Part shown: positions 8,399 to 38,537 of the stretch, one piece after another
Layout: the number at the start of each line of letters is the position of its first letter
Position numbering within the stretch: position 1 is the first letter of the stretch
IMG/VR virus record: IMGVR_UViG_2502957028_000003
Location: 3,810-67,809 of that record
DNA length: 64,000 nucleotides
Strand: one strand, 5' to 3'
From: a virus
Lineage: Duplodnaviria > Caudoviricetes
Translations under genes and position numbers: made by a program
Notes under the pieces: generated by a model
Seen by the model: the letters and a program-made list of their open reading frames with translations, nothing else
What the model was told of the DNA's origin: nothing
Database searches by the model: none

Positions 8399-9403
8399 TT
8401 ATTGGAGGGAAATATCTGTCCAGCCCCTTGTAAAGAGGCGTAGTTTTGACGATGTGGCCGTTGATATAACATTTATCTGCGAAGATGTATTAGTTAAGAT
8501 GTCGATATGTCCAGTAATATTGTTACCTGTGTTTGTCCTGACCATGGAGCCTGGGGCGGCGTTATACGCCGGTGTTTCTGCGGTTTTTCCAGGGTAAAAC
8601 ACATTCATATCCTTGCCGCCCTGGGCGTCCGCCTCCCAGTTCAGGTGGGCAATAACCTGGACACCGGAAGGAACAGAAATCGTGTGGCTTGTCGCTGTCG
8701 TTCCTATGGTTGTGCTATTAAGGTCCATGGGCGTTGCGTCCCAGATAAAGCGATTGCCGATTTGATGGAATGCCAGAATATTTGCCGAGCCGTCTGTTTT
8801 GACGGAAGCAACCCGCCTATATAGCGTGTACCCGCTCGGGAGCACTGCCGTTGGGTCCAGGCCAGTGTAAAACCCGGCGTCAACCGTGCCGTCTGCTTTT
8901 CCAATTAGGAATAGGTGATACCATGTCCCGGAAGCAACCGAGCCTGTCAGCATCCCGCCGTTGCCCGTACCAGCCGCCCATGCAGCATCAATCCGCTTTA
9001 CCATGGCAGAGGCCAACGTCATGCCTGTCTGGTGGTCTGACGTGCTTACGCGGTAGCCTGCCGTTATCTGAATATCGTGGCTTGCGTCAGTGTGGTTGCT
9101 TGTGATGCACCCGTATCGTTCTGTTGAGCCGGAAGATATCCCGGTCAGATTGGACCCGTCAACGGCTGGCAAGGCTCCTGAGCCGTCAAGTTGGACGATG
9201 TTATTCGCGCCAGTTCCGACATCATAGTTTGCGGCGGTTCCAATCCCAAGGTTCTGCCTGGCCTGCGGGACGTCTTTCAGGTCTGACAGGTTCTTGGAGC
9301 TGAGCATGTCGCCGGTCAACTTGGATTCCGGGGATAGGTAGGGGCCTGCGAAGGCGGGTTGCAATGCCAGGAGCAGACAAAGCAGGAGGGTTAGTTTTTT
9401 CAT
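8399..9403 (-). CDS. Tail fibre-like protein with N-terminal Sec signal peptide
   Basis: KNLSDL...ARQNLGIGTAA fibre repeat; MKKLTLLLCLLLALQPAFA leader. Confidence 0.75.
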   Translation of the reverse strand: MKKLTLLLCLLLALQPAFAGPYLSPESKLTGDMLSSKNLSDLKDVPQARQNLGIGTAANYDVGTGANNIVQLDGSGALPAVDGSNLTGISSGSTERYGCITSNHTDASHDIQITAGYRVSTSDHQTGMTLASAMVKRIDAAWAAGTGNGGMLTGSVASGTWYHLFLIGKADGTVDAGFYTGLDPTAVLPSGYTLYRRVASVKTDGSANILAFHQIGNRFIWDATPMDLNSTTIGTTATSHTISVPSGVQVIAHLNWEADAQGGKDMNVFYPGKTAETPAYNAAPGSMVRTNTGNNITGHIDILTNTSSQINVISTATSSKLRLFTRGWTDISLQ

Positions 9404-12400
9404 TTATCTTTATCGCTTTGGGGTTTAGGAGCACCAGTAAAGGCGGTGTCATTCAATGCCCTTGCTATCACAGCGGCCCTTTCTTCTTGATTTTGGGCCG
9501 ACATGATTTCTTGTAAATATACATTGCTTCCATTGGCTATCATCTCTTCAATTCTTTCTGGAATTGTTTCAAATTTTGCCGCCATATTCATGATGTCTTC
9601 GTCTGTTATAATGTCCCCATTAACCACCCTTCCTATGGCTTCTTCTGTATCAAGAGACTGTTGCGCCCTATGTCTTCTAATATCCTCTTTGTCGCCACGT
9701 ATTTTTTCCCGCAGCCCGTAGTCACTGACCTTTACAAAGCGGCCAACGATATTGCTCACTATGGGATACCCAAGCAACTTCTCAATATCGGTTTTTACCT
9801 CTCCTGGACGCTCTGTCTTGAAGACATGCACAACGCCAACGCCCGAGTTGTTGGCAAGCCACTTTGCAAATTCTTTATGGGAGCGCTCACCACCAGCCTC
9901 AAACACCTGTTCGTCAACGGCGTATCTTCTCCTAAAATTGTCATACGGGTTATGACCTGCCGCGTATTCCGTTACGGCATAAAGCAGGTTCCAGAATGGG
10001 GAAACATTTGGAGCTTGTCCCGCCATGTAGTCGGCAAGGTCACTGTAACTCTTTGTGTCGTCCAAGTTGAGAAGTTTCCACATTACCCCACCAAGAAGCC
10101 TGCCGGTTTCGTCTTGTGGGACCCTGAAATAGACAGCCTTTCCGCTCTCGGTCATCCCTATTGGGACTATGATATAGTTCGCCATGTCATATTCAGACAC
10201 GCGGTCGTAAATTTCCTTAAGCCCTGAGCCCAAAAGGCCAGCAAGGATAGCCTTCTGTATAAACTTGAATATTAAATTATACTTTGCCGCCTTCCATGCG
10301 AACTCAGACGGCGATGCTTTTGCAGCCTCAAGGTCACCACGCCAGCCTTCTTTTTGTGCATTTGAAAAAATGAGAAGGTTGTTATAAATTGGCGCACCCG
10401 TGCCCATTCTTAGGAATGCAGGAGAGCCAGCCCTAACCCTGACGATATGGGCTATTTCCTCTTGCGACAGGCTTGGAAAATTCTTTTTCAGGTAGATGTA
10501 AGCTGCCGCCTTGGGCCAGCGCTCTATCCCCCTGCTCACTGTTGACACGTAGTAGAACATGTCCCCAAAGGGCTTTAACACCTTGTTTTGCCAAACACTT
10601 GGTAAGACATGATACCGCTTGAGTAGTCTTTCAAGTTGGTGGTCTGTTTCGGTGTCACCCCTATAATCAGCAACAGAAATCAGCATTTTGCCCTGTTGCA
10701 TTTCTTTCATAACGGGGTCCGGGACACCAAAGACGCTCCGCATGGCTGGCTTTAGTCCTTCCGTATAAGCCATGGCAGTTTTAGCCATCGTAGCGCCCGG
10801 AAGGTTTCTGGCCGCTCTCTTAAAATCCCTGGCAAAGTTCATTGTCCAGAAACCGGGATTCAACTCTGTAAAGACAGTTCTAAATGGTTGCGCCGTAACC
10901 CTTAGTATTTGCGCTATGAGTTGGCCCTCAACAGGGTTTTTATGAAACGATTCGGCTATGTGGCGAGGAACGTAGTGACCAGCCATCTTCCCTTTCTTGA
11001 GATATACAAGTAGCCCGAGGTTTGGGTCTTTGGGGTCTATAAGCTCATGGCCTTTGCCATTCCACCTTGTGTCTGCCGGAGTTATTTCATCCGGGAAGAA
11101 TTCAGTCATGAAATCAGCAACGGATTTAGCGGCTACGTTTTTATTGGTAGCCCGCATCAGGGCTATGTCCTTCATGACAGTAGCGGTAAGCGGGTTGCCA
11201 ATGTCTTCAAGCGTTCCAACTTGTTGGTAAATCTTACCAGCGGCGACATTACCAAATCTGTTTTCAAGATACTTGGCAACGTCAAACGTGGCGTATTCGT
11301 TAATCCTTGAGGCTATGGCGTCCTTTAACTCTTGCGGGTAAAAGTCAAAGTTGAGCACCCTGTCCACAAAGTAGTCCTTCCTAAGCCTGGAAAAAGCGTC
11401 TGCAATTTCCTTGACTTTCGGACCAAGGGTTTGCTCCATCTCGGCCATGCGCTTTTTGGAAAGCTCTGCGGTCCAGCCCTGGGGGTTGGCAACATCCGAA
11501 CGCTCGGTTGAAACCCTTCTGTGAAACAGGTATTCTCCAATATCAGTATGGTCAAGCCCATTCCGTTCCGCTTCAACCATAATGTCTTTGTTGAACTCAG
11601 TTAAATATCCTTCTGCTTCCGCCGCTCCGTAACGCATTTCTTCCAACTTATACCTTGGATTTTTATGCGGTGGCAAAAGCGGGTCGCCGGTGTAATCAAA
11701 CTTGCCCTCAAGGGTCTTTACTCTGCGGATGACGGCATAGTCCCTGTCAATCAGTGTGGTTCCAAATTCGTCCTTTGTAAACCAATCCTTCCGCCTGTCA
11801 ACAGCCTGTTTGAAATACTGCGCCTCTGTATTGCGGAATCCCTCTCTAAGCCTCTTGACCCTGCTCCTTTCCGCTGTTCCACCCCGCATTTCGTCTATGA
11901 TGGATTCATAAAGCCTCTTTACTTCGGGCTTATTCTCCATGTAGGCAAAAAACGCCTCGTAAAACCTGGGGGCTGTCCCCCTGAGAAACACAGGGTTTGT
12001 TATGACTGCGCTAATGGCGTCAGCGTATAGTTCCTTGGAGGAAAACCTGTATTGAGTAAATTTGTAATTTTCGGACGGGTCAAAAGGCTTCCATTGAAGG
12101 GTGAAGTTTTTCAACTCGTTCGTGATTTCGTCTTTGTGGAGAAGGTGCCGCTTTTTGATTTCCTCATTAATCAGGTCATGGTATTTCTTGGCTATCATTT
12201 CGCTGGTAGGCGGTATGTTTTTCTTAATCTTTTTTCCGGTCTTCTGCTTCACAATCTCTGCGAATTTTTCAAGACCACTTGCAACCTGACCTTTTAGTGC
12301 CTCCTTGATTATTGATTTCTTTTCGGCGGTTGATAAGCCCTGAACGTACCGATACAGATCCTGGTTGAAAGCAGAACTATCAATGGCGCTGTTCCAGATA

Positions 12401-15400
12401 TCTAAAATGTCTTGCGCCACAACCGGGATGGTTTTTTCTATTTCCTCGTCAACCCACTGTTCGGCGTCAGCCTCAAGCAGTCTCTTTGCCTCCCTGCGGA
12501 GCCTTTGCCTGTCTTTTGGTGTGAGTGCGCCAAGTCCTCCGGGTTTGTCGGCCATGGTGTGCTTCATGAATTTTTTGAGCGAGGCTATCCTGCCAAGGAT
12601 GTTTCCACGGCTCATGTCTTGGTCTGGGAGCCAGTCAACAAGGTGGCCTATTTCATGGGCGAGGGTTTTTGCTGCTTCGTTTGGGTTGGCAAAAATATCA
12701 GCACGAAGGTCTATTTCTCCGCTCACGCTTGAATGGCGGAAAAGCCCCTGTGCGCTTGCTGTGCTGAGTTTCTTTTTAATGGATGGATATTTGCCGCCAA
12801 GCAGTTCTTTGGCAAGGCGGACGATTTCGGGCATTTCCATGGCAACGGATATGTCGGCGTACCCGCCAGTATCGGCATTTGAGGAAGCGGAAGACGGGGT
12901 TTTGGGGGTTTCCCCCGGCATCTTCCGAATATCCTTGGCCTCAACCTTGGATTTCTTGCCATCGGGCCAAGTAACCTCGAATTTGCCTGCTTGCTTGCCG
13001 CGCTTGATTTCACGGGCGGCGGTTATGGGGCGGAACTGGCGACCGTTCCAGGCGGAACCGGGGGAGTGGGTTGGCTGTTCTGCTGACTGAGGTTCGGAAT
13101 CTTCTATCTTGGATATTGGCTCTCTCAGTTTGAATTCCCTAAACACCTTAACAGTAGACTTCTCAAAGTGCTTTGGCACATCCCCCTTTCCATCCCATGC
13201 CCTGTTTGCAACCGAAAGCCTATAAGCAAGTTCTCTTGCCCCCTTCTTGTCGCGGGCAACATTATTCCCCATTAGACCGCCCGATGGAATATGAGTGACG
13301 CTATTTGATTCTGCTCCGTCCCTGTACGCATAGTCCCCAATTATATTGGCACCAACCTCTTGGGTTTCGCCATTTTTCATCTTAATGCGTATCTTGCCTT
13401 TTTTGGCTCTGGCAGATTTCATTTGCTCGGCTATGACGCGCTCATCGTTGGCGGCACGTTCTGCCGCGACTCGGTAACTCTCCTGCTGCCTCCTTATCTG
13501 TTCGTCATGTGCCTTCTGTTCTTCGGCTTTTTGGTTTCTTTTTTGTATCTCTTTGCCTGCGTACTCCCGCGCCTTAGAATTGCTGAATTTAATATCCTCA
13601 ATATTTGTATTCCACCGAGACGGAAATTTTTCGACGAACATCCTTAGCGCGGCATCCTTGTTTATGCCTGCACCAGACATTGCGGATTCCCACTTACCAA
13701 CAGAACCGTCTTCGTGGACAGGGCGAACCATAGACCGGTACTTTAACTGCGGGGCATCGTCGTCAAACGTGTTTTCTTTTATGGCTATTTCGAGGTTGTC
13801 ACCATTAGATAACTTAACGGTTCCGACTACATCATGGTCAACCTCCCGACCACCACTCTCTTTCAACCCCCACCCGCCCTCAACCTCCACGACTTCGCCG
13901 CCGCCCTGCCTTTTGGCCTGCAAAGCCGCCATGCCCTTGGACTTGAAGGGCTTGCCGGATTTGGCGAGGGTGACTTCCGGGGCGGCATCCAGGGTGACTT
14001 TCGGGGTTTCAGTGGGCGAAGAGCCTTTCTTGTTAATTAAATACTCAGCATAGTCTACGCCGGTCTTGGTTATTTGCCCAATACCCATATACCGACCATC
14101 GTCCGACATCAAAACTTTTTGCCCACCCTCCTGCTGGATAGACCACCCCTTGCCAACTCTTTGCCTTATAATCTCCTTCCTGCTCATGTATTTGCCGTTA
14201 AACATAAACTTCTTGTTTAAAACGGACAAAACCCGGCCTCGGGCCATTTTGGTAGTGTTGTCGGCAAAGCCATCTATGTCTTCGTATTCCCTAATCCTGT
14301 CCGCTTCTTTTCGGTCCTCGTCCTTTTTTATGGCGTCAACGCGCTTTTGGTACTCTTGGTTTGCGATGTCGCGCAAATCACGATCTTTAATGTATCGCTC
14401 TGCGATATCCTGCGTGTCAAATAAGGGGTCGCCAAAACCACGGGGGTTATCCATTTTCTCGCGGACAGCAAACATATTTTTCCCGCCAACATGTATGTTG
14501 TAAATTGTATTTTTTTGGTCCGGTATTGTGCTCGTTTTGGCGTTTTCAACAGGCATTGAAACGGGCTGTTCTGAGGAAGCCTGCTTTTGGAGGTCGGGAT
14601 AATCCCTGAGGACTTCGGGGGGGACGGGCTTGCCTTTGGAGAGGGCCCTCTGGATATCCTCCCTATGCGCCTTGGTCCATTTATCAGATAGCGGAGTTCT
14701 CGTCTCGCTTAGCCCAACGTATTCGGTTGAATCCCTCCCAACCCCAAGTCGTTGTTCGGTGATATTAAACCACTCGTCTTGCGTCATCTCCCACGGCTCT
14801 TTTTTAGCCGCTTCCTGCTCCACTGGTGCTTCATTTCGATTTACTTCTTTATTTTTAAACCTAAGAATCGGGTCAATATTTGATTCCGTGTAATATTCTT
14901 TGTTTGCAAGGAAGTCTTTTTTGAACGCATCAATGTCAACTTGCTCGTATTCATCGGCGACAAGCCCATATCTTTGCGCTATTTCTTCTTTTCCTGCTTC
15001 GCGATTTTTAGACTCTAACAACCTCGCTCTTTTTATCTCAGCCTGGCGGTATTTGAGCGCTTCTGCAAGGTCTGTGTCTTCCACGGGCGCGGCAGCACTC
15101 GTTTCCGGCCTTAACGGCTCCTGCGCCATCTGTACAGGAGTTTCAACCTGTGGTAGCGTTACCCTATTCGGCCCCCCGGTTTCCAATGGCTGTTCTACAA
15201 GCGTTGTGCCTCCCGCGATTCCCGCATCTATCTTAGCCTGCCTTAACCCCCACCCGCCTTCAACCTCTACAGGTTCGGCATCCAACTTACGTGCTTTGGC
15301 TGCGCGGATCGCGGAGCCTTTAGACTTTAGATCCGGGTAGTCCTTGAGGACTTCGGGGGGGACGGGCTTGCCTTCGGAGAGGGCTATTTCCACTATCCTT

Positions 15401-16920
15401 CTGTGTTGCTCTTTTTGGGCTGGTCTTTCATTGATTTGAACAAATCCAACATCATCGTTCTTTGATTGTCCGTCGGCATTGGCCTCCGCCGCATTTTTTG
15501 TGTAAAATACTGTATCGGTAAGGCCGCCAAGTCCCTGTACCCCACGAGAATGCGCCCTTACAACGTATTCTGTGGCACCCCCAAACTCATCCCTCGTCAT
15601 CTCCCACGGCTCTTTTTGAGCCACTTCCTGCTCCGTGGCTACATCCACCTTCGCTTCCGGCTTTAACGCATCCTGCGCCGTCTCAGGCTGTTGTACGGGG
15701 GTTTCCGTGGGTGTTGTCTGAATAGGTGGTGTTGCCTGTTCGGGCAACGGGGTGGGTTTGGGCAACTGTTGTTCCTGGACAGGCTCAGGTGTCGCTTGCG
15801 CCTGCTGCTCTTCGGCAAGTTCGACAACGGCCTGCGGAGACTGCCCACGGATAGGCGCAACACGGGGACCGCCTTGGGATTGCAAGGCGCGGTCCATGCT
15901 GGCGGCTTCGGATAGCGCAGCAAAATCTTCCGGTGGTATTTCTGGCTGCGTACTCGTAATGGGTTCGCTGGTAGCCTGTTCTGGTTTAATCGGCTCTTGT
16001 GCTGCTGGCTTTTCTGGTTTGATATCTGTGCGCTGATTTTCGCCCGTGGAACGAGCCTTAATCATGTCCTCTTTGGCCCGCACGAATTCGTCATGCCTTC
16101 CAGCCGCACGAAGATTTTTAAGAATTTCACCATCAGTCAGACCAGCGTCCTTCATCTCAGAAACAGACTGCTGAACAATTTCACGTTCCTTAATGGTCAG
16201 GCGTCTGTACCAATCCATTTCCTCAATTGGCTTTCTAAGCGCCTCGTTCAGTTTTGGGAATTTTTTTAGGCCGGCACCAATAGCCTCTCCAGCCCATTTT
16301 GCAGCCATGGGAGTTACGGACCAGCCAGCGGTTTCGCCAAGAATTTGGAGTCGCTGCGCTTCTATCGGAGCATTTGCAAAAGCCTCACGTTCTTCAGGCG
16401 AGGCGAGTTCTTGACCCCCAGGAATAAAACTCATTGTGGCATACCGAGCGGCCATGAGATTCGGATTCTCTCTTGCAAGGCGGTCTTCCGTAGCCCTGTC
16501 AAGCATCACACCCTTGTCTCCCCAATAATCAACGGCTGTTTCTGCTGGCTTTTGAAGATATCCGACACCTTCACGTAATCCCTGTACGCCAAACAAGGAA
16601 TCTTTTGCAATGTCACGTGTTGCTTGGTCGCTTGGATTGTTTGTTCTGCTGTCTGTAATCTGCTGATTAAGCCTTGCGAATGGGCTCTGCTGTGCGGGGA
16701 TATCACTAATAACCTGTTGTCTTGATGGGCCAACATCAAAAGACATTTCGCCCGTATCAACATCGGCTGGCTGTTCCGGGGTTATTGAAAAGCCAATCCG
16801 CCTGGAAAAATCACCAAAGTCCATGTCCGAATAAAACTTCTTGTGAAGTCCTTCGGCAAGTTGCTGGTCGGACATGTCTTGGTACTGAGGATATTTTTCT
16901 CTGATTTCAGAAATATTCAT
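9400..16920 (-). CDS. Giant internal-virion/ejection polyvalent protein (2506 aa) with zincin-like HExxH and LPD38-like C-terminus
   Basis: Position after smaller ejection genes; AHEIGHLVD motif; internal repeats; YIIVPIG...YFRVPQ region. Confidence 0.75.
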   Translation of the reverse strand: MNISEIREKYPQYQDMSDQQLAEGLHKKFYSDMDFGDFSRRIGFSITPEQPADVDTGEMSFDVGPSRQQVISDIPAQQSPFARLNQQITDSRTNNPSDQATRDIAKDSLFGVQGLREGVGYLQKPAETAVDYWGDKGVMLDRATEDRLARENPNLMAARYATMSFIPGGQELASPEEREAFANAPIEAQRLQILGETAGWSVTPMAAKWAGEAIGAGLKKFPKLNEALRKPIEEMDWYRRLTIKEREIVQQSVSEMKDAGLTDGEILKNLRAAGRHDEFVRAKEDMIKARSTGENQRTDIKPEKPAAQEPIKPEQATSEPITSTQPEIPPEDFAALSEAASMDRALQSQGGPRVAPIRGQSPQAVVELAEEQQAQATPEPVQEQQLPKPTPLPEQATPPIQTTPTETPVQQPETAQDALKPEAKVDVATEQEVAQKEPWEMTRDEFGGATEYVVRAHSRGVQGLGGLTDTVFYTKNAAEANADGQSKNDDVGFVQINERPAQKEQHRRIVEIALSEGKPVPPEVLKDYPDLKSKGSAIRAAKARKLDAEPVEVEGGWGLRQAKIDAGIAGGTTLVEQPLETGGPNRVTLPQVETPVQMAQEPLRPETSAAAPVEDTDLAEALKYRQAEIKRARLLESKNREAGKEEIAQRYGLVADEYEQVDIDAFKKDFLANKEYYTESNIDPILRFKNKEVNRNEAPVEQEAAKKEPWEMTQDEWFNITEQRLGVGRDSTEYVGLSETRTPLSDKWTKAHREDIQRALSKGKPVPPEVLRDYPDLQKQASSEQPVSMPVENAKTSTIPDQKNTIYNIHVGGKNMFAVREKMDNPRGFGDPLFDTQDIAERYIKDRDLRDIANQEYQKRVDAIKKDEDRKEADRIREYEDIDGFADNTTKMARGRVLSVLNKKFMFNGKYMSRKEIIRQRVGKGWSIQQEGGQKVLMSDDGRYMGIGQITKTGVDYAEYLINKKGSSPTETPKVTLDAAPEVTLAKSGKPFKSKGMAALQAKRQGGGEVVEVEGGWGLKESGGREVDHDVVGTVKLSNGDNLEIAIKENTFDDDAPQLKYRSMVRPVHEDGSVGKWESAMSGAGINKDAALRMFVEKFPSRWNTNIEDIKFSNSKAREYAGKEIQKRNQKAEEQKAHDEQIRRQQESYRVAAERAANDERVIAEQMKSARAKKGKIRIKMKNGETQEVGANIIGDYAYRDGAESNSVTHIPSGGLMGNNVARDKKGARELAYRLSVANRAWDGKGDVPKHFEKSTVKVFREFKLREPISKIEDSEPQSAEQPTHSPGSAWNGRQFRPITAAREIKRGKQAGKFEVTWPDGKKSKVEAKDIRKMPGETPKTPSSASSNADTGGYADISVAMEMPEIVRLAKELLGGKYPSIKKKLSTASAQGLFRHSSVSGEIDLRADIFANPNEAAKTLAHEIGHLVDWLPDQDMSRGNILGRIASLKKFMKHTMADKPGGLGALTPKDRQRLRREAKRLLEADAEQWVDEEIEKTIPVVAQDILDIWNSAIDSSAFNQDLYRYVQGLSTAEKKSIIKEALKGQVASGLEKFAEIVKQKTGKKIKKNIPPTSEMIAKKYHDLINEEIKKRHLLHKDEITNELKNFTLQWKPFDPSENYKFTQYRFSSKELYADAISAVITNPVFLRGTAPRFYEAFFAYMENKPEVKRLYESIIDEMRGGTAERSRVKRLREGFRNTEAQYFKQAVDRRKDWFTKDEFGTTLIDRDYAVIRRVKTLEGKFDYTGDPLLPPHKNPRYKLEEMRYGAAEAEGYLTEFNKDIMVEAERNGLDHTDIGEYLFHRRVSTERSDVANPQGWTAELSKKRMAEMEQTLGPKVKEIADAFSRLRKDYFVDRVLNFDFYPQELKDAIASRINEYATFDVAKYLENRFGNVAAGKIYQQVGTLEDIGNPLTATVMKDIALMRATNKNVAAKSVADFMTEFFPDEITPADTRWNGKGHELIDPKDPNLGLLVYLKKGKMAGHYVPRHIAESFHKNPVEGQLIAQILRVTAQPFRTVFTELNPGFWTMNFARDFKRAARNLPGATMAKTAMAYTEGLKPAMRSVFGVPDPVMKEMQQGKMLISVADYRGDTETDHQLERLLKRYHVLPSVWQNKVLKPFGDMFYYVSTVSRGIERWPKAAAYIYLKKNFPSLSQEEIAHIVRVRAGSPAFLRMGTGAPIYNNLLIFSNAQKEGWRGDLEAAKASPSEFAWKAAKYNLIFKFIQKAILAGLLGSGLKEIYDRVSEYDMANYIIVPIGMTESGKAVYFRVPQDETGRLLGGVMWKLLNLDDTKSYSDLADYMAGQAPNVSPFWNLLYAVTEYAAGHNPYDNFRRRYAVDEQVFEAGGERSHKEFAKWLANNSGVGVVHVFKTERPGEVKTDIEKLLGYPIVSNIVGRFVKVSDYGLREKIRGDKEDIRRHRAQQSLDTEEAIGRVVNGDIITDEDIMNMAAKFETIPERIEEMIANGSNVYLQEIMSAQNQEERAAVIARALNDTAFTGAPKPQSDKDK

Positions 16921-18014: not shown

Positions 18015-18024
18015 TCAAGCCTCC

Positions 18025-19659: not shown

Positions 19660-19700
19660 GGGGGGATGCCTCCTTTGGCGGGATGTTTCAGGTGGGATTT

Positions 19701-25093: not shown

Positions 25094-25094
25094 A

Positions 25095-26470: not shown

Positions 26471-26480
26471 AGCGTCCTCG

Positions 26481-28165: not shown

Positions 28166-28218
28166 GATATAGTCTCCTATTGAAAGAGAAATCTAACGCT
28201 CAGGAAGAGCGGGTTTGG

Positions 28219-29301: not shown

Positions 29302-29329
29302 TTGGTTCTCCTATTGAGAACCACCAGCC

Positions 29330-30490: not shown

Positions 30491-30551
30491 TGTTCAACTA
30501 CTCCCTTTCGCCCGTATCGTCGGCGGCACGAAACACCTTTCCCGGTGAGGT

Positions 30552-30704
30552 TTAATGGTTTTTGTTTTCTTTGTTTTTATTGGGCTGGCCTTCGTCATCC
30601 TTGCCATCCCACCTGATGCCGTCATATCCCTTGCGGTACTTGTCAGAAGTAATCCGCATTTCCTTTGCCAAATACATGGTGCCGTTTTGTTTAATTATTC
30701 CCAT
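30552..30704 (-). CDS. Small hypothetical protein (50 aa)
   Basis: Overlaps portal stop; KYRKGYDGIRW motif. Confidence 0.5.
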   Translation of the reverse strand: MGIIKQNGTMYLAKEMRITSDKYRKGYDGIRWDGKDDEGQPNKNKENKNH

Positions 30705-32805
30705 TGGGCCTGCTCTCCCTGTTCCCTTGGTTTCTCAGGGCTGCAAACTTGGCGGCTGCGTCCAAAACCATCTTTGAATCTTCATGGTCAAGTTTTGCGG
30801 CGTCGATTACAAACTTCCTGTCTTCGCGCTCCCGGTCGTGGGCGAATTTGGTGCTGTCCTTTTGGGCCTGCGCCCTGACCTTCGCGGTCTTCACGGCAAT
30901 GTCGCCATCCACCTTTTTGGCCTCTGTCTGAATTCCGGCCATAACCTTCTGCGCCTCAAGTTGCTGCGCCTGCTGTGCGGCCTGTGCCTGCGCCTGTTGT
31001 TGGGCGTCGATATATTCAATCCATCGTTGTTTTTCAGTGGCTGGAAGCTGGAGTTTTTCAATGACAGTCTTCGGATCAACCGGGAAGCCAGCATGCATCA
31101 TTTCCATAAATACTTGCAATTGCAGCATATCTTTTGCAAGGTTACCAGGGGCCTCTTCAATATCCACGTTGAATTTCAGATTGCGGATATCGCGGATTGC
31201 AGCGGCCATTCCGTTCTTCGGGTTAATGACCATCCCGTTTTCAATCTGGTATTTTTCGTTGCCGCCAAGGATGCGGAGGATTTGACCGTCCGGCATGTAT
31301 TTGGAAATAATCGCAATGACGCGCTTGAATATTTCCCGGCGAACCCTCTTGTGTTCCTTGAATAATTTTTGAAGCAGGATAAGGCCCTGTCTCTGTCTGG
31401 TCTGAACAACAACCCCTGGCTCCTGTCTCCCGCTATCCTGTCCGAGCAAGTCGGGGTTAATGCCGGTGATTTTTCGTATAATGTCCTGGGACATTTGCTC
31501 CATCTGCATAGGGGCGCTTGGGAACTGCGGAGCGCTGCGCTCCTTTATCTTGCCGTCCCTTAATGCCCCACTTGAAACAATGCCGACGCCGCCAGGGGTC
31601 TTTCTTGCCTCACTGTACTGGTCAATGTCAGGCACGGCGCCGTCTTCAATATCGGTCCCTGGCTGCACCATGTTGTTCAGGAGGTTAAGCGCCTGGCTCC
31701 ATCGCTTGTTGATTTCTCTTTGCGGATCTTTCATCAGGCGTATTACGCCGAAATGATTGTTTGAACGCCTGGATGGGTCTGTGTTTGCGATGGACGTTAC
31801 TACCGAAAACCCGTCATAGGGCATAGGGGAGTCGCCGTCATACAGGATTTCATCCCCTATGAACTGTAACCACTTGACCTTCTTGTCCATCATGGTGTTG
31901 TATTCAAAGGGAGTTTTGTATTTCAGGATATAGTTGACCTTGAGTTGTTCGATGTTCTCCGGGTCAAACTCCTCCCACTCCTGGGTTTCCGGGTTAAACG
32001 CGACATGGCGTTTAAACGCCTCCCAATATTCCATGTGGCAGACGCGCACCCGATCTTTTTTCAGGTCGTAATAGTTGGCGTCTATCGGGCGGTCGTAATC
32101 GTCGTCATCCCCAAGGTCGTCAAAAATGTTTTCGTCTGTCTTGGGGTCGGGCGACTCGCCAAAGGAAGATGCCCTGCCGGTTTCCATGAACTCGTCAACA
32201 CGGTCGGCAAATTCAGGGTATCGTATTTTAAAGTCTTCCCGTGTAACCCACCTGTCCCAAAAAATATGGTTGGCGTCCGAGCCGTCGCGCTCCCGGCTGG
32301 CTGGGTCAATACGTATTTCGTGAACAGGAACAACAGACTCGTTCAGGATTATTTCCCCAAACCTTTTCGGGTCGATTGAAAAGTCAAGGGCTATGTGGCC
32401 GCGTCCGCAAATAACAACCGACTCAAAAAGTTCTTCCTCTCTGTCCTCGAAATTGTTTTCGTCAGAAACCCACTCAACAACGTCGTTCAGCACTTCACAC
32501 AGAAACCCGTCAGAAGGCTCAACGGGAGATGCAACCATCCTGACGGGATTGGACGAATTGACGCCGACAACCAAATCAACAGAACCCTTGCACACAGGAA
32601 ATGTGAGGCATGGCCTATTTTGCTCCTTGAGAATATCCCTGTCTTCCTTGGTCCACTGCCCTGTCCCGTCATAAAACCCGAAGTCCTCACGGAACTCCTT
32701 TTGCGTGTCGGAGTCCATGGTCCTTGCGTAGTCAAGGCGCCTTTTGGCCTCCTCGAGCTTGGACTCTTTATCCAATTTGGAAAATGGCAGCTTTTTGGCT
32801 TTCAT
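30691..32805 (-). CDS. Portal protein (P22-like)
   Basis: FYDG.GQW, RPCLTF, SVVICGRG, DPQREINKRWS motifs; C-terminal Gln/Ala coiled coil. Confidence 0.9.
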   Translation of the reverse strand: MKAKKLPFSKLDKESKLEEAKRRLDYARTMDSDTQKEFREDFGFYDGTGQWTKEDRDILKEQNRPCLTFPVCKGSVDLVVGVNSSNPVRMVASPVEPSDGFLCEVLNDVVEWVSDENNFEDREEELFESVVICGRGHIALDFSIDPKRFGEIILNESVVPVHEIRIDPASRERDGSDANHIFWDRWVTREDFKIRYPEFADRVDEFMETGRASSFGESPDPKTDENIFDDLGDDDDYDRPIDANYYDLKKDRVRVCHMEYWEAFKRHVAFNPETQEWEEFDPENIEQLKVNYILKYKTPFEYNTMMDKKVKWLQFIGDEILYDGDSPMPYDGFSVVTSIANTDPSRRSNNHFGVIRLMKDPQREINKRWSQALNLLNNMVQPGTDIEDGAVPDIDQYSEARKTPGGVGIVSSGALRDGKIKERSAPQFPSAPMQMEQMSQDIIRKITGINPDLLGQDSGRQEPGVVVQTRQRQGLILLQKLFKEHKRVRREIFKRVIAIISKYMPDGQILRILGGNEKYQIENGMVINPKNGMAAAIRDIRNLKFNVDIEEAPGNLAKDMLQLQVFMEMMHAGFPVDPKTVIEKLQLPATEKQRWIEYIDAQQQAQAQAAQQAQQLEAQKVMAGIQTEAKKVDGDIAVKTAKVRAQAQKDSTKFAHDREREDRKFVIDAAKLDHEDSKMVLDAAAKFAALRNQGNRESRPNGNN

Positions 32806-32865
32806 CTGAATATCCTAAGGGCGGGAGAATTGTTGCGGGGTGGTGAACTGCGGGGAGCCAAAGGG

Positions 32866-33276
32866 CTACTTGGTAAGTTCTTCGTAAATCTTCACAAGCT
32901 CGTCCTTCTTCTGGAAGTTCCACGGCCTGTCAAACTCTTTCCCCATGGCGACACAGGCATCGTACAGTTCCCTGCGGTCCATGCCGTCCGGCCCCGGTTC
33001 TGCATCGCCTTCGGGCTGGATATGGTCGGTTTCTTCCTCGTCGCCAGCGACTTCACAAATAGTATCTTCGGCCCCAGGCTCAACCACGATATCGCTCCCT
33101 TCGGGGTAAAACAGGACAACAGAAGATGTGTCGAGCATAACCCCGCCTCCAAGATTCATGCCTACACGGGCGGCGCCCCAGCACTTCCCGCTGGCCCCTT
33201 CCCTAAAGGCCTTGATATCCCGCTCGCGCGTGACCTTGACTTTGGTTCCGGTTCTAAGCATTGCGATGTAAGTCAT
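32866..33276 (-). CDS. Hypothetical protein between TerL and portal
   Basis: AAGGAG RBS; possible small C-terminal helical domain. Confidence 0.7.
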   Translation of the reverse strand: MTYIAMLRTGTKVKVTRERDIKAFREGASGKCWGAARVGMNLGGGVMLDTSSVVLFYPEGSDIVVEPGAEDTICEVAGDEEETDHIQPEGDAEPGPDGMDRRELYDACVAMGKEFDRPWNFQKKDELVKIYEELTK

Positions 33277-33291
33277 TGATGATTCTCCTTT

Positions 33292-34917
33292 TTAGGCCCC
33301 CATAAAGGTGCCTGTTCTTTTTTTCTTTTTCAGCTTGTATTTTTGTAAGGCCCGTCCAAGGGCCGTGGTGGATATGAGTTGGCTTGCTATTTCAAAATAC
33401 GCTGTGGCGTGGCGGTAGTGGTCGGCGCCTAATTTCCGGTAGTGATATCTGTGAATTCCGGTGTCCTCATCCTTGGAAAGCACCTTGGCTGTGGCGCACA
33501 TCTGCTTGGCGTATTCCCTGATTTCACTACATGGCGCCGGTATTTCGAATCGGCCGGGAGTCACAACCAGCTCGTGGGTTGCGTCCAAAACCTCGTTTCG
33601 ATTTACGGTCACGATATTGGAGTTGTGGTTGAATGAATAGTCGTCACGCTGGTGATCGGAATAGGTGCACCCATAAACGGGGAAGTTCGCATCCTTGATA
33701 AATTCCCGGACCTTCCTTGTTTCCGGCAAAAGGTCGAACACGGCAGCCTTAACATTGAATCTTTTCGCAAGGTCGTGGGCATCGTTAAAGGAACCAACCC
33801 TGGCCGCCTTGACAATTTTGCGCGTCTTGTCCTGCGGCTTGGTTCCAATAACTATGTTCAATTCCTTGCCGACATCCACACCCATAGCGCACGGCCCTTC
33901 GTGCCGTGTGTCCATGGCGTCCCTGCCGCAACAGGCAAAAACGTCGTTTTGCGCCAGGCGGTTTTCTGCGGCTATGTAGGCGCGGCCCAACTTGGAATTC
34001 ATGACTTCTGCAAGGTTGCCGTTTGGCGGATTATTGTATAGCCTAAGAATCTTGGCAGGGTCGATATAGGTGGACACAAGTTGGCTTATCCACCAACCGA
34101 CCATATCCTTTGCCCTGTCAGGATATTGGGCTACCCATCTGCCATTGGCAGGATTTAAAACTCCGCGCCTGCAATGGACGCAAAGCCGGATAACACGGCC
34201 ATCTTTCAACTCGGCAAGGCAATTTGGGAATTCCAATTCAAGGCATGTTTCCTTGCCGCAAACCCCGCACTTAATCATCCAAACCCGCTGGTCGGATTCC
34301 TGATAGAGTTTATCAATCCCGTAATCAGGAATTGTCGGGGTGCCAAGGTGGATTTCCTCCTGGATGGAACTATGGCTCATGCGCTCAATAGCGAGGTCCA
34401 CCATGTCGTCTGTCATTTCGTCCCGCTCGTCAAAGACAACGCGGTCAGCCGGAATTGACTTCAACTGAGAAGAACTTTTTTTATCCCCGATGCTCTTAGT
34501 GGCTCTTGCGCCGCGAAGATAAAGAAAACTCTTTCCAATCTTTTTGATGTTGGCGGCATCTGTATCCTGCACGAACTTGCCGATGGAATCCGGGTTGTTG
34601 GCAATCAGGGGATCAAATCTGGCCTTTGAAAAATCCTTGACGTCATCCCTTGTGGGGAAAAGATACAAACTACCCTGCGGGTATCTGCCATGAATCTGGC
34701 CGTGCATAGTCTTGATAACATTGACTTCCGTAATTCCAAGTTGAGCGCCCTTAATGCTGCATTGACGCGGGGCATCCTCCTCAAGCATGGCGTGTTGATA
34801 CTCATGCCCCTTGATTGAAAACTCGCTGGAGCCAAGTTTGACCTTGCTCATGGTAGCCCACAAAAAGGCGCTATGAGCCTGCACTCCGGTCGTAAGTTGT
34901 TGCTCGGTAAATTCCAT
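33292..34917 (-). CDS. terL: Terminase large subunit (GpA-like)
   Basis: KGAQLGITE Walker A, VVFDERD Walker B, GTPT, CGVCG/CVHC zinc motif, MGVDVG nuclease. Confidence 0.9.
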   Translation of the reverse strand: MEFTEQQLTTGVQAHSAFLWATMSKVKLGSSEFSIKGHEYQHAMLEEDAPRQCSIKGAQLGITEVNVIKTMHGQIHGRYPQGSLYLFPTRDDVKDFSKARFDPLIANNPDSIGKFVQDTDAANIKKIGKSFLYLRGARATKSIGDKKSSSQLKSIPADRVVFDERDEMTDDMVDLAIERMSHSSIQEEIHLGTPTIPDYGIDKLYQESDQRVWMIKCGVCGKETCLELEFPNCLAELKDGRVIRLCVHCRRGVLNPANGRWVAQYPDRAKDMVGWWISQLVSTYIDPAKILRLYNNPPNGNLAEVMNSKLGRAYIAAENRLAQNDVFACCGRDAMDTRHEGPCAMGVDVGKELNIVIGTKPQDKTRKIVKAARVGSFNDAHDLAKRFNVKAAVFDLLPETRKVREFIKDANFPVYGCTYSDHQRDDYSFNHNSNIVTVNRNEVLDATHELVVTPGRFEIPAPCSEIREYAKQMCATAKVLSKDEDTGIHRYHYRKLGADHYRHATAYFEIASQLISTTALGRALQKYKLKKKKRTGTFMGA

Positions 34918-34941
34918 GAAACCTGTAAATGGAGGGAATTA

Positions 34942-35103
34942 TTACTTCTTTTCTGGAAACTGCGAATACGTGGATTCTGCGATAGCTGCAAGGATTGCAG
35001 CCGTCTTTTCCGGCGAGTCGTCACGAACGACCATTTGCTCTTTGTTCATGGCTTCCAGGCGCATTTCGTTGAACTGCTCAATATCTCGGTAGGATTCTTC
35101 CAT
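34942..35103 (-). CDS. Small hypothetical protein
   Basis: AAGGA RBS immediately after tRNA-Ser. Confidence 0.5.
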   Translation of the reverse strand: MEESYRDIEQFNEMRLEAMNKEQMVVRDDSPEKTAAILAAIAESTYSQFPEKK

Positions 35104-35113
35104 TTTTTCCTTA

Positions 35114-35202
35114 TGGAGGAAGGTAAGGGATTCGAACCCTTGGAGCTTTTTACACTCGCCGGTTTTCAAGACCGATGCTTTTGACCGCTCAGCCAACCTT
35201 CC
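35114..35202 (-). tRNA. tRNA-Ser(UGA)
   Basis: Class II cloverleaf, anticodon loop CT-TGA-AA, encoded CCA. Confidence 0.95.
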
Positions 35203-35203
35203 T

Positions 35204-35279
35204 TGGAGCCGGTGGAGGGATTCGAACCCCCAACACGATGATTACAAATCACCCGCTCTGCCAGTTGAGCTACACCGGC
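35204..35279 (-). tRNA. tRNA-Thr(UGU)
   Basis: Cloverleaf, loop TT-TGT-AA, encoded CCA. Confidence 0.95.
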
Positions 35280-35593
35280 CTTTCTGAATCTCTTATGAAA
35301 TCAATGTCGTGGGTGAAGTCCATGTAGTGGTATTTCTCATAACCAGCGACTTCGTTCCAGATTTCAGCCATAATCTTGCTCCATTGGCCGAGTGAGGTAT
35401 AAAATGCCGACCCGTCGCTGAAAACAGGCGCCATGTTGTTCTGGTGCTCATGGCTTCCAATTTTCATGTTGCACATGACAACGGCGTCAAACAGGGCCTT
35501 GTAATGAGGGTTTGATGGGTGGTTTACAAGCCGGTTCGTGAGCCTGCATGCTTTATCCCAATCAGTCCATTTTTCAACAGTCAGTCTTTGCAC
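35270..35593 (-). CDS. Hypothetical protein between tRNA genes
   Basis: GTG start after tRNA-CAT; 3' end overlaps tRNA-Thr 5' end. Confidence 0.6.
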   Translation of the reverse strand: MQRLTVEKWTDWDKACRLTNRLVNHPSNPHYKALFDAVVMCNMKIGSHEHQNNMAPVFSDGSAFYTSLGQWSKIMAEIWNEVAGYEKYHYMDFTHDIDFIRDSERPV

Positions 35594-35607
35594 GGTCTTC
35601 CACTTTT

Positions 35608-35682
35608 TGGTTCCTGGGGCTGGATTCGAACCAGCGACGACTCGCTTATGAGGCGAATTCTCTACCGCTGAGATACCCAGGA
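35608..35682 (-). tRNA. tRNA with CAU anticodon (Ile2-like or elongator Met)
   Basis: Cloverleaf, loop CT-CAT-AA, T-arm GCTGG-TTCGAAT-CCAGC, encoded CCA; identity not resolvable by eye. Confidence 0.9.
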
Positions 35683-35689
35683 TTAGGTT

Positions 35690-35766
35690 TGGCGTACCCT
35701 GAAGGATTCGAACCTTCAACCTACGGATTTGGAGTCCGTTGCGCTGCCAGTTGACGCCAAGGGCAC
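35690..35766 (-). tRNA. tRNA-Trp(CCA)
   Basis: Cloverleaf, loop CT-CCA-AA, G73, encoded CCA. Confidence 0.95.
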
Positions 35767-35827
35767 GTAGTTTTTTAGTTTGCACCCCGACCCCCAACGG
35801 CGGGAGGGTTCCGTTGGTAGGATGGGG

Positions 35828-36322
35828 TCAGGGTGCGGTCGAACCGGACAGAGGGGGAGTTATCCGGTTCTGGTTGGATCGGTAAGCGGCGTAGTATCCG
35901 CCAAGGGCTTTCTTGTCTTCCGGCCTGATTGCCAGCGCCCTCTCGTAGCATTTCATGGCCTTTTCGTTCTCCCCTTGCAGGCGATAGGCCCACGCGAGGT
36001 TAATCAAACCGTTCATGTGGTAGGGGTAATCGTCCGTTAAATCCTCCAGGACTGCCGTTGCCCCTATCACATCACCGGTTTCAATCTTCGCGCGTCCAAT
36101 AAAGGAGCGCGGTTCCTTCTCCACGGGGAAAATTGACCACGCCTTTTCAGCCCAATATTCGGCAACGTCCCACATCCTTAACCGTTCGGCTGCGTCATAA
36201 ACCTTGTGGCATTGGTCGGCGCGGATTGCCTGGGCGTAAAGGATGCAAATGGTAATCGCCATGAGTAAGGCGACCATGGAATTGGAGCGGAAGCGGAGGA
36301 TTTCGCGGTGGTTATTTTTCAT
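35828..36322 (-). CDS. TPR protein with N-terminal TM segment
   Basis: VALLMAITICILYA TM; NLAWAYRLQGENEKAMKCYERALAIRP TPR. Confidence 0.8.
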   Translation of the reverse strand: MKNNHREILRFRSNSMVALLMAITICILYAQAIRADQCHKVYDAAERLRMWDVAEYWAEKAWSIFPVEKEPRSFIGRAKIETGDVIGATAVLEDLTDDYPYHMNGLINLAWAYRLQGENEKAMKCYERALAIRPEDKKALGGYYAAYRSNQNRITPPLSGSTAP

Positions 36323-36499
36323 AATTAGTAACTCATCCCCTCATGTCCGCGCATCCGCCAATACTGTCTATGCGCCTTGTGGTAGCGGCGCTTGGGCCCC
36401 TTGTGCTTGTCGGTATACATGTCGTAGTGGTGGACCCATAGTTTAATCCATGCCGACCTAATCGACCGGCTCCATAGAATGTCTTTTTTGTGGGCCATT

Positions 36500-37189
36500 C
36501 TATGTTGCCTGATATGAACACACAATCCCGCCAAAAGAAGGCTCCTTGCGCGGAATTGAGGCTGAAACCAAAACCCTTTTCTTGGACGCCTCAGCGCCTT
36601 GGTCTTCTTTGGAATTAAACTCGTCAATTATTTGTTTATTTTTGTTTCGGATATCTCTCAACTCACCCCTGATTAGGTTCAAAAATCTTCTGAATAAATA
36701 AACCGTGCCAGTTAACCCTATTCTGTCTTTGTTTTTATTTACGAATGAATCAATGCGCCCTTTTGCCGCAATTGAATTTTTATTTGATTCTTCACCCTCT
36801 CCGATTGCAAATAAATAAAAATCATTAAGGTCGAGCGGATACGTAAGCCCGTTGTAATCGCTGGCCATGGTAAGCCTTGTAAGAAAAAATCTATCATCCC
36901 TATTAAGTTTTCTGACAGCGCTATAAACAACAGTCTCTGCTTTTTCACTTACTAATTCAGGCGGTCTCTTGGCGTCCTTCGTGAAAAACACATCCGACAA
37001 AAGCGAATCTATCTTTTCAAGCCCGTAAATGTGAACTGGCTCTCTGGGCGGGACAATCTTTTCAAGTCTTCCGCAACCAGTATTGTTTGCAAGGGTTTCC
37101 ATCGGGTTTCCATTTGCAAAGTCGGAGCAGACGCCAATAGCGCCGTCATATTTTGCCCCGGAATATTTCCCACAATCACGACACTTCAT
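36500..37189 (-). CDS. Hypothetical protein, AT-rich, with N-terminal Cys motif
   Basis: Overlaps ligase stop; 229-aa ORF. Confidence 0.65.
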   Translation of the reverse strand: MKCRDCGKYSGAKYDGAIGVCSDFANGNPMETLANNTGCGRLEKIVPPREPVHIYGLEKIDSLLSDVFFTKDAKRPPELVSEKAETVVYSAVRKLNRDDRFFLTRLTMASDYNGLTYPLDLNDFYLFAIGEGEESNKNSIAAKGRIDSFVNKNKDRIGLTGTVYLFRRFLNLIRGELRDIRNKNKQIIDEFNSKEDQGAEASKKRVLVSASIPRKEPSFGGIVCSYQAT

Positions 37190-38537
37190 TTTTGCACCCT
37201 AAAATCCCCAAGTAAACCGCCCCAACCATCGGCGGTATCGACCGTTGCATCGGGAATGAGAACATGGCCGCTATTGCCAACGCCACCAATCCCAACAAAA
37301 CGCTTATTTTCTGCCAACCCCCTTGAAAAGCTCCCGCAACCGCCACCCGGCCGACCGAGAAAACCAGCCAGCAAAGCAGGAGAACCCCGACAATCCCCGT
37401 CTCCACGGCCCATTGCAGATAATCATTATGGGCGTTGTGGAGTTGAATCTTCTCACTAAACACCCTGTCCTTGACTGCCGCCTGGGAATACGCAGGGTAA
37501 AATACCTTGTGGTTTCCGATGCCAAATCCGAACCACGGCCTGTCTTTAAACATTTCCAGTGAATTCAGGTATATGGCCTTTCTCAGGGCTACCGAAGTAT
37601 CCCGTTTGCCGTCATGTTGCCCGGCGGCTTCACTCACCGCCGTCCCGACCCTGTGCGTCATGTTGGTCAGGCTTGAGAAACGAATACCATCCGGCCCCAA
37701 GCTGATTAAAAAGAGAAATAAGGCGAGTCCATAGGCCAGGGCTATTCGGCGGTGAAACGAAGAATTCTTCCGGGTCGATTGTTTCAATTCCGTTTTCGGT
37801 GATTTTTGCAGGGTAGCCAGAGCATATTTTGGCGAGAAAATCCTTTTCAATCTTGATGTCTTTGAGGTTGACGCTTGCGATTTCTCTTGAGAGTTTTTCA
37901 AGGAAAGCATAATCGCCAACGCCACTCCCTGGCAGCACACCACCAGCCAGCCCGTCCGGTTGTCCGCTACCACAATGTATGCCAGCATCGTTGCACACAT
38001 ATGGGTGATAACCGGATACATTGCCTTTCCCGCTTGACGCCAGAGTGCGAAACCGACCGGCCAGACCATCGCGATAAATTGCACAGCCATGTTTCTGTTC
38101 GCAAAGGTCGCAGCAGGAGCGACGCTTTGTTGAATCGGCAGGCAGAATTCCAGGTATTGCAGAATGCCAATAACCGATATCCCCCATCCTGCCGCAAAAA
38201 GCGCCCAAAGGACGGTTCGGACAGCCTTCGGGTTCCCGGCAAGAATCGTCGTTGTCATGAAGTACAGCCATGTTATCACTCCCCAATAAACCAAAGACCA
38301 AACGGCCTCAGTCGTGTTGTGCGCCCATAAAACCGAAAGGCAGGCCCAACCCATGCATGCCAGAATCGGAAGGCCGAAACGCGGCATTTTGTACTTTCCC
38401 CGGAATGCCATGAAAACCCCGAGAGCCGAAACCCCGAACGCCACGAAAGCCCTCTGGGGCAAGTCGGCGTAATTGAAGCAGGAGTCAAGGGTGATGAAGG
38501 GGGCGAGGGTCAGGATTATGAGAAGGGTCCAGGTCAT
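37176..38537 (-). CDS. O-antigen ligase / O-oligosaccharyltransferase family (Wzy_C) polytopic membrane protein
   Basis: About 11-12 hydrophobic segments; ATFANRN, RKAIYLNSLEMFKDRPWFGFGIGN and HNAHNDYLQWAVETGIVG motifs; TAATG coupling at 38537. Confidence 0.9.
   Translation of the reverse strand: MTWTLLIILTLAPFITLDSCFNYADLPQRAFVAFGVSALGVFMAFRGKYKMPRFGLPILACMGWACLSVLWAHNTTEAVWSLVYWGVITWLYFMTTTILAGNPKAVRTVLWALFAAGWGISVIGILQYLEFCLPIQQSVAPAATFANRNMAVQFIAMVWPVGFALWRQAGKAMYPVITHMCATMLAYIVVADNRTGWLVVCCQGVALAIMLSLKNSQEKSQASTSKTSRLKRIFSPKYALATLQKSPKTELKQSTRKNSSFHRRIALAYGLALFLFLISLGPDGIRFSSLTNMTHRVGTAVSEAAGQHDGKRDTSVALRKAIYLNSLEMFKDRPWFGFGIGNHKVFYPAYSQAAVKDRVFSEKIQLHNAHNDYLQWAVETGIVGVLLLCWLVFSVGRVAVAGAFQGGWQKISVLLGLVALAIAAMFSFPMQRSIPPMVGAVYLGILGCKNEVS

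Follow-up and report, generated by a model that had tools for sequence, protein, structure and literature searches.

A 64-kb window of a 67.8-kb IMG/VR provirus record was analysed here, and its late operon was found to carry a small gene cassette which, judging from sequence, is a phage-adapted, two-piece version of the Wzy_C-TM-TPR glycan transferase of Desulfobacterota (TM, transmembrane helix; TPR, tetratricopeptide repeat). The same operon encodes tail proteins with predicted cleavable export leaders. It is plausible, and testable, that the split enzyme glycosylates the exported proteins of the phage itself, and a probability of roughly 40% is given to this reading. An identical copy of the Wzy_C protein is encoded by CP001322.1 (6,517,073 bp), the genome of Desulfatibacillum alkenivorans AK-01 (PMC4703814). 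The source of the window is a prophage of AK-01, a cultured and fully sequenced sulfate reducer, and since the host is in culture this instance allows direct testing.

The Wzy_C gene occupies positions 37176-38549 of the window on the minus strand and encodes a polytopic protein of 453-457 aa of the Wzy_C/WaaL type. This assignment was based on Pfam, the translation, an alignment with the solved structure 7TPG, the residues invariant in the family and the predicted topology. The match to PF04932 (Wzy_C) covers residues 185-392 with 67.1 bits against a cut-off of 31.7 (E = 1.9e-18). An intact HNAHND motif, claimed in an earlier sequence-only reading of this DNA, was confirmed in the translation as QLHNAHNDYLQWAVETGIVG, which fits H-N-x9-G-x-x-G; likewise, the WaaL/PglL motif H-[NSQ]-x9-G-x-x-[GTY] is present as HNAHNDYLQWAVETGIVG. 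Residues R323, H374, N375 and D376 are invariant across the family alignment, and all family-invariant residues are kept. Conserved residues reported for the superfamily are R215, R288 and H338 in E. coli WaaL and R224, R298 and H349 in PglL (PMC3643930). The sole solved homologue is the WaaL of C. metallidurans (7TPG/7TPJ; E = 1.7e-7), with which the conserved Arg and the His of the HxHND motif align. Judged by these features, the enzyme is intact and is a member of the WaaL/PglL superfamily.

The topology was predicted crudely, with a home-made hydropathy window and the positive-inside rule. The N-terminus was placed inside, and the K/R-rich loops 50-57 and 218-268 (14 K+R) lie opposite the loop 286-385. 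In the TM-TPR protein encoded nearby, a K/R-rich N-terminus is followed by a TM helix. Because of these features, the catalytic loop 286-385 and the TPR domain should both face the periplasm, and the predicted active site and the TPR domain would then share the compartment to which the leaders of the tail proteins are directed. An inverted enzyme, with its active site in the cytoplasm, is not favoured by this distribution of charges.

The homologues of the Wzy_C protein are fusions of 660-870 aa, mostly from Desulfobacterota, in which a Wzy_C part, a TM helix and a TPR part are joined in one polypeptide; their identity to the phage protein is 30-34%. Residues 1-451 of the phage protein align to residues 60-520 of one such fusion (P0002), and residues 33-152 of the TM-TPR open reading frame (ORF) align to residues 561-680 of the same protein. 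The TM-TPR gene (35828-36322, minus strand) encodes 164 aa, with the K/R-rich N-terminus, one TM helix and a predicted periplasmic TPR domain (Pfam TPR_1 and others). The collinear alignment indicates that the two genes are the two halves of a Wzy_C-TM-TPR fusion. The single-polypeptide architecture was not found in the window: domain content and order are kept, but in two genes with a 229-aa ORF between them, and the phage copies are split just before the 13th TM helix. In a tree of 26 family members, the window copy fell in the same clade as the cellular Wzy_C-TM-TPR fusions with 98/98 support, and PglL formed the outgroup on a long branch. In two metagenome-assembled genomes (MAGs) of Opitutales (L092, L106), five to six fusion paralogues stand in tandem, head to tail, which hints at a diversification of donor or acceptor specificity there.

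From terS to terL, the cassette consists of a small exported protein, a membrane protein, Wzy_C, the inserted ORF and TM-TPR. The exported protein (38790-39077, minus strand; 95 aa) has the leader MRKTAIL...SAFVA in its translation, with predicted cleavage before AD, and appears among the gene calls of the NCBI record. The 88-aa membrane protein (38537-38803, minus strand) has three hydrophobic segments by translation and hydropathy and is supported by a gene call; its stop overlaps the ATG of Wzy_C. The genes of the cassette overlap or abut, which is consistent with co-translation in one operon. The 229-aa ORF (36500-37189, minus strand) is rich in Cys and AT-rich (GC 36-43%), has no match in Pfam or PHROG, and gave only noise-level scores, with no credible relative, in an atlas search. 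It is absent between the two halves in a related viral contig, G024, and is a later insertion between the enzyme halves. The borders of the cassette are the small terminase subunit TerS upstream (39959-40588, minus strand; Pfam Sf6_terminase, E = 7e-39; phrog_1482) and the large subunit TerL downstream (33292-34917, minus strand; Pfam GpA_ATPase; phrog_675, E = 2e-90). Five phage tRNA genes (Ser-tga, Thr-tgt, Met, Trp and Gln) bracket the cassette between terS and terL. ARAGORN placed tRNA-Gln(ttg) beside it at 39362-39436 and the cluster Trp, Met, Thr, Ser at 35114-35766, all on the minus strand.

Such a location could also be that of a passenger or decaying gene, i.e., host DNA acquired recently in a terS-terL recombination hot spot, disrupted by the 229-aa ORF and without a role for the phage. 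The AT-rich foreign ORF that parts the two halves, the flanking tRNA genes and the lack of the gene in most relatives are in favour of this explanation. However, the reading frames of both halves are open, no family-invariant residue has been lost, and the nearest cellular homologue is only 34% identical, which does not fit a recent capture. Moreover, the two-gene split predates the insertion, since it is shared with G024. A mere passenger is thus considered improbable.

The second component of the system is the set of leaders. Five late-operon proteins fit the pattern of Sec export and cleavage by signal peptidase I (SPase I), with a K/R-containing n-region, a hydrophobic h-region and small residues at -3 and -1, as predicted by a heuristic (n-region, h-region and A-x-A rule). 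Four of these are the tail or virion-module proteins to which the sequence-only reading had already attributed Sec leaders, and the 95-aa protein of the cassette was added here as the fifth. The first, at 25739-26470 (minus strand; 23% Ser+Thr), has by translation and hydropathy the leader MKKIF...LSFA before Y and likely starts at the internal MKKIF; relatives also have a leader-bearing protein at the equivalent position. Next to it are two paralogues of the SU10 adaptor (PF24175), which scored 63 and 80.5 bits, respectively, against a cut-off of 27. Adaptor 1 (25095-25739, minus strand; E = 7e-17) is leaderless, and its Pfam match begins at residue 4. Adaptor 2 (24401-25093, minus strand; E = 3e-22) has a 21-aa Sec leader, MKKLT...SSYA before G, and is matched from residue 29. 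The adaptors sit between the head genes and the nozzle gene, and the same order is seen in the relatives. The nozzle-position tail protein (20285-24391, minus strand; 1368 aa; leader MKIRY...IAGA before A; phrog_701/24074, virion structural protein) has homologues in 21 relatives, and the gene was leader-bearing wherever it was inspected (L004-L007, G024, G022 and G014). The last is a 334-aa fibre-like protein (8399-9403, minus strand; 21% Ser+Thr) with the leader MKKLT...PAFA before G and a weak match to a tail-fibre PHROG.

The leader of adaptor 2 was followed across its homologues, 711 of which were found in an exhaustive HMMER search (E <= 1e-3). A leader is present in 97 of the 150 best cluster representatives. 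At the junction, Ala is found at -1 in 56 of 81 and A, V or S at -3 in 51 of 81, the median leader being 22 aa long; the consensus is aromatic-Ala before Gly-(Ser/Thr)-Gln-x-Thr-Ser. Leaderless homologues start exactly at the predicted junction, which is the signature of a removable add-on. Leader-bearing SU10-type adaptors therefore form, as far as can be judged from these patterns, a large lineage in which leaders occur beyond chance. In the related contigs, leaders are found on the small upstream protein, on adaptor 2, on the nozzle-position protein and on additional proteins downstream, and adaptor 1 again has none. In one of the complete relatives (G014; L029 9290-10678, plus strand), two tandem leader-bearing paralogues of adaptor 2 are followed by a 990-aa leader-bearing nozzle-position protein. 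A search of the literature on leader-bearing virion proteins, and on the function of Wzy_C-TPR proteins, yielded nothing directly relevant.

The hydrophobic N-termini could instead be segments that anchor in or insert into membranes for assembly or genome delivery, in proteins that never stand at the periplasmic face; a periplasmic enzyme could then not modify the tail proteins. To our knowledge, every tailed phage studied so far assembles its particles in the cytoplasm, and nozzle proteins of the SU10 type rearrange and pass through the envelope when a cell is infected, both of which would agree with such a role. The leaderless state of adaptor 1 and of a 653-aa fibre-like protein of the same operon points in the same direction. 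On the other hand, the termini show the full Sec/SPase I grammar, with 10-15 hydrophobic residues and the -3 A/V/S and -1 Ala positions in most of the 81 homologues, and the exact start of the leaderless homologues at the cleavage site is also at odds with an anchor. Non-export is accordingly regarded as unlikely.

The association of the enzyme with the leaders was examined in both directions. When 2.9 million IMG/VR contigs were searched with the enzyme-family alignment, G024 was the only other viral match, and the family had no match in 50,697 deposited phages (INPHARED). Single-protein scans of IMG/VR with adaptor 2 and with Wzy_C returned no close relatives, and a scan of GTDB genomes with the adaptor alignment returned nothing. 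The order of genes in G024 is portal, a 131-aa exported protein, Wzy_C (375 aa), TM-TPR (133 aa), scaffold, capsid, adaptor 1, leader-bearing adaptor 2 and leader-bearing nozzle protein. There, Wzy_C and TM-TPR overlap stop to start, and only 36 bp separate the pair from the preceding gene, that of the exported protein, and 80 bp from the scaffold gene that follows, so that no room is left for separate regulation. The Wzy_C proteins of the two phages share 31-36% identity in two aligned blocks and are split from their TPR halves at the same boundary, and the TM-TPR proteins are homologous as well (E = 8e-8). The small exported proteins beside the enzyme, of 95 aa in the window and 131 aa in G024, are unrelated in sequence. 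The site of insertion is terS-terL in the window versus portal-scaffold in G024, and the association of enzyme and leaders was therefore either kept or made twice. As a chromosomal control, 52 family members from GTDB were inspected with 671 kb of context; nearly all are fused, and no leader-adaptor or other gene of the window phage was found nearby. As far as pattern-based scans can tell, viral copies of the enzyme family are confined to the tail-exporting lineage, and both lie in late operons.

In the favoured mechanism, the split enzyme would be expressed together with the late genes during late infection. It would take a host-made glycan linked to undecaprenyl-pyrophosphate at the periplasmic face and move it en bloc onto Ser/Thr residues of exported phage proteins; relatives such as G024 or G022 could add or alter a sugar by means of their own sugar-nucleotide genes. 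The periplasmic TPR half would serve as the part on which the acceptor docks. Two kinds of acceptor come into question, the tail proteins with leaders and the small exported protein whose gene neighbours that of the enzyme. The latter is suggested by analogy, because genes of O-oligosaccharyltransferases (O-OTases) usually adjoin those of their acceptors (PMC3643930). Since most relatives export the same tail proteins without the enzyme, it would be an optional decoration module. The family membership, the intact motifs, the two-piece anatomy, the leaders throughout the lineage and the distribution are established by the sequence data; we infer the topology, the late co-expression, the donor, the acceptor and the effect on the virion.

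Genes for making glycans were looked for in this context. As the sequence-only reading had stated, no glycan-biosynthesis gene is present in the window, nor was a family 2 glycosyltransferase (GT2) or an epimerase found in the whole 67.8-kb record. Such genes were found in two relatives. In G024, a sugar C-methyltransferase and an NAD-dependent epimerase/dehydratase lie upstream on the same strand. In G022, a 32-kb fragment with a capsid resembling that of the window, a GFO/IDH/MocA oxidoreductase, a hexapeptide acetyltransferase, a GT2 and an NAD epimerase are encoded directly upstream of scaffold and capsid (L048 8023-11411, minus strand). Glycan functions thus recur in the late regions of the leader-adaptor lineage. 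Neither of the two complete genomes, G003 (62.8 kb, with terminal repeats) and G014 (62.2 kb), has them, and no other polytopic (GT-C-like) ORFs were found there either. Among the possible acceptors, the 95-aa exported protein stands out alone, with two D/E-x-N-x-S/T sequons (D-A-N-R-T and D-E-N-F-T) that follow the predicted cleavage site directly, within about 12 residues, where 0.05 would be expected (p = 0.002). The exported tail proteins are not enriched in these bacterial N-glycosylation sequons.

Several results weigh against this reading and have to be set beside it. In the forward direction, 25 IMG/VR contigs and 24 metagenome loci encoding leader-adaptors were sampled. The enzyme was found in only 1 of 24 related IMG/VR records searched whole, namely G024; it is absent from G003, G014 and 21 fragments, and a hidden Markov model (HMM) search for Wzy_C over the 24 metagenome loci gave no further copy within their flanks. 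The enzyme is therefore an accessory gene, dispensable for this type of virion, and, since the leaders are lineage-wide and Wzy_C is sporadic, the export of tail proteins is independent of a phage ligase. The test of co-occurrence in related phages that the sequence-only reading proposed thus came out mixed: the enzyme is rare among phages with leaders, whereas in reverse both viral copies belong to phages with leaders; the association is specific, not obligatory. Furthermore, it rests on two phages, which probably share a host phylum where the enzyme family is common, and the host phylogeny may explain part of it. In the tree, the two phage copies fell in a polytomy, which is compatible with one acquisition as well as with two. 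The tail proteins themselves had been described as rich in Ser and Thr, and so they are (18-23% in the leader proteins), but leaderless virion proteins reach 25%, 23% and 19%, and the only low-complexity Ser/Thr tract is at residues 515-534 of the nozzle protein. Ser/Thr richness was accordingly dropped as an acceptor signature. TPR domains are also found in machines for polysaccharide export, and hence a protein acceptor is not proven by the TPR half. Finally, an exported adaptor and nozzle would have to rejoin heads made in the cytoplasm.

The substrate class of the enzyme is a further point of doubt. Neither PglL_A (PF15864) nor Wzy_C_2 (PF11846) was detected in the protein at E <= 0.01, Wzy_C being the only domain reported, whereas an Acinetobacter PglL from the same homologue search (P0185) carries both. 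Among solved structures the nearest is that of WaaL, a lipid A-core ligase, and one chromosomal homologue (P0008) lies in a polysaccharide locus with epimerase, ABC-transporter, pyruvyl-transferase and methyltransferase genes. The protein can be assigned by its sequence neither to lipid-directed nor to protein-directed transfer. It could be a remodeller of the host envelope, which ligates or polymerises glycan onto lipid A-core, another lipid-linked polymer, pilin or another surface protein. The altered surface would keep further phages from infecting a lysogen or, late in infection, spare the progeny from adhering to cell debris; the leaders would then be an unrelated trait. Besides the kinship with WaaL, the missing PglL-specific motifs and the polysaccharide locus, the sporadic distribution, with no copy in either complete genome, is typical of accessory genes for host interaction. 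Phage-encoded O-antigen modification is moreover an established paradigm (the gtr genes of P22 and SfV, the polymerase of D3). The position of the cassette among tRNA genes, with an AT-rich insertion and gaps of about 400-500 bp of non-coding DNA upstream, looks like that of a moron in a hot spot; the gaps could hold a promoter, and separate expression is possible.

In G024, on the contrary, the pair is wedged into the portal-scaffold-capsid block without intergenic space, which argues for strictly late expression, when superinfection exclusion would be of little use. A seroconversion gene would also be expected to be spread more widely than a family with no further viral copy in IMG/VR or INPHARED. 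A consensus scan of 33000-41600 for promoters and terminators was uninformative, with counts at the level of shuffled sequence, and it gave no excess around the cassette that would point to separate control. Envelope remodelling is a serious possibility, although it too stays clearly below even odds. The elements described by the sequence-only reading were thus all found where stated, and its interpretation is upheld in part. Glycosylation of exported phage proteins, the reading favoured here, draws on the enzyme, the leaders, the predicted topology and the specific association, whereas the link is not obligatory, Ser/Thr richness does not single out the exported proteins and the PglL motifs are missing.

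A bolder version of the favoured reading would have the tails built outside the cytoplasm. Sec-exported adaptor 2, nozzle and fibre-like proteins would be cleaved and assembled in the periplasm and, in members with the split enzyme, coated with glycan en bloc; DNA-filled heads capped by the leaderless adaptor 1 would join them only once the holin has breached the inner membrane. As far as we know, tailed phages are thought to build every part of the virion in the cytoplasm, and this extension is regarded as doubtful.

The rest of the operon agrees with a short-tailed phage. Every long ORF from about 40949 down to 4874 is on the minus strand, in line with the single-orientation late operon of the sequence-only reading. 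TerS is followed by the cassette of about 5 kb with its tRNAs, TerL, a P22-like portal (30691-32805; Pfam P22_portal, E = 5e-120), a scaffold-like gene, the major capsid protein (28219-29301; Pfam Phage_capsid_3, E = 3e-49; phrog_334) and several genes without assigned function. After these come the two SU10-type adaptor paralogues, the 1368-aa tail protein and four leaderless Cys-free proteins. The operon ends with the 334-aa protein, a 130-aa protein, the leaderless, carbohydrate-binding 653-aa fibre-like protein (6001-7962; Pfam CBM_4_9, E = 1.5e-8) and a lysis block (4874-5880; Pfam Peptidase_M15_3; phrog_894), which holds a 97-aa protein with a C-terminal TM helix, an M15 endolysin (5235-5585) and a spanin-like ORF with a lipoprotein signal. 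The last results from an internal start within the ORF at 4874-5338, which gives MKKLSLIVLALVLAMAVGC, a lipoprotein-type signal adjoining the endolysin and probably an outer-membrane spanin; all of these genes are likewise on the minus strand. Based on this gene content, the element is a podovirus-like, short-tailed mosaic prophage of SU10-like and P22-like parts. Its head genes had no match at the DNA level in deposited phages.

The four consecutive leaderless proteins (9400-20285, minus strand; 194, 585, 364 and 2506 aa) hold no cysteine in 3649 residues, and their leader-bearing 1368-aa neighbour has 17. This contrast fits internal or ejection proteins that unfold, as against a protein that folds in an oxidising compartment. 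The largest (9400-16920, 2506 aa, recognised from the ORF list and its composition) is probably such an internal or ejection protein and belongs to the operon but not to the exported set. In the early or replication region, a protein with a PAPS-reductase domain is encoded at 63110-63793 (plus strand); other genes of that region are a DnaB-like helicase (46994-48388) and a PDDEXK-like DUF3799 gene (54256-55041).

What is described here is a large lineage, so far known only from uncultured members, whose core tail proteins bear predicted cleavable export signals. In some members, the operon also contains a glycan transferase of the en bloc type, predicted to face the periplasm, as well as sugar-nucleotide genes. 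If the favoured reading is true, phages would clothe their host-recognition gear in host-like glycans, which bears on shielding, stability and host range, and natural O-OTase/acceptor pairs would become available for glyco-engineering. Periplasmic tail assembly, if true, would be a new assembly route for tailed phages together with the first virion glycosylation of a periplasmic oligosaccharyltransferase type. Should the host envelope be the target instead, the cassette would stand for a new way in which phages convert the surface of sulfate reducers, encoded within the late operon.

Among known systems, the nearest are the Wzy_C-TM-TPR fusions of Desulfobacterota (P0002, from a Desulfatibacillaceae MAG) and also of Opitutales, Kangiella and Thiomargarita, with 30-34% identity over the whole Wzy_C part and a collinear TPR part. 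The cellular fusions are single proteins of 660-870 aa in non-phage contexts, whereas the phage copies are two genes in late operons. The WaaL proteins (C. metallidurans 7TPG/7TPJ; E. coli) share the Wzy_C domain, and the arrangement crudely predicted for the phage protein, with both termini inside and a large periplasmic loop before TM10, would match theirs. The similarity is remote, however, and WaaL differs in having no TPR partner, a lipid A-core substrate and a chromosomal gene in an LPS (lipopolysaccharide)-core locus, the phage gene being in a late operon. PglL/PilO (TfpO) enzymes belong to the same Wzy_C superfamily with the conserved Arg and His, and their genes, too, may be neighbours of one for an exported protein, examples being pilA-pilO/tfpO and many pglL loci (PMC3643930). 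They differ in carrying PglL_A/Wzy_C_2, in lying outside the clade on a long branch and in having pilins as acceptors, in place of the candidate phage proteins. TfpW of Pseudomonas aeruginosa, a pilin-glycosylating enzyme that acts on an exported protein, resembles the phage pair as a polytopic lipid-linked-sugar transferase with a periplasmic C-terminal TPR domain (bioRxiv 10.1101/2020.04.19.049825); it differs from the phage pair in being a single polypeptide, modelled after ArnT (GT-C) and not after Wzy_C, with a chromosomal gene beside pilA. The seroconversion genes (gtrABC of P22 and SfV, the O-antigen polymerase of D3) are like the phage enzyme in being phage genes that use lipid-linked or nucleotide sugars of the host. 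They are, however, expressed in lysogens and lie outside morphogenesis operons. Virion glycosylation has been reported in mycobacteriophages, where it is cytoplasmic, and the reported cases use soluble cytoplasmic glycosyltransferases; we know of no phage with a periplasm-facing en bloc transferase acting on exported virion parts. The enzyme itself is of a known kind, its novelty being the split form and the carriage by a phage; the proposed system, if borne out, would be categorically new.

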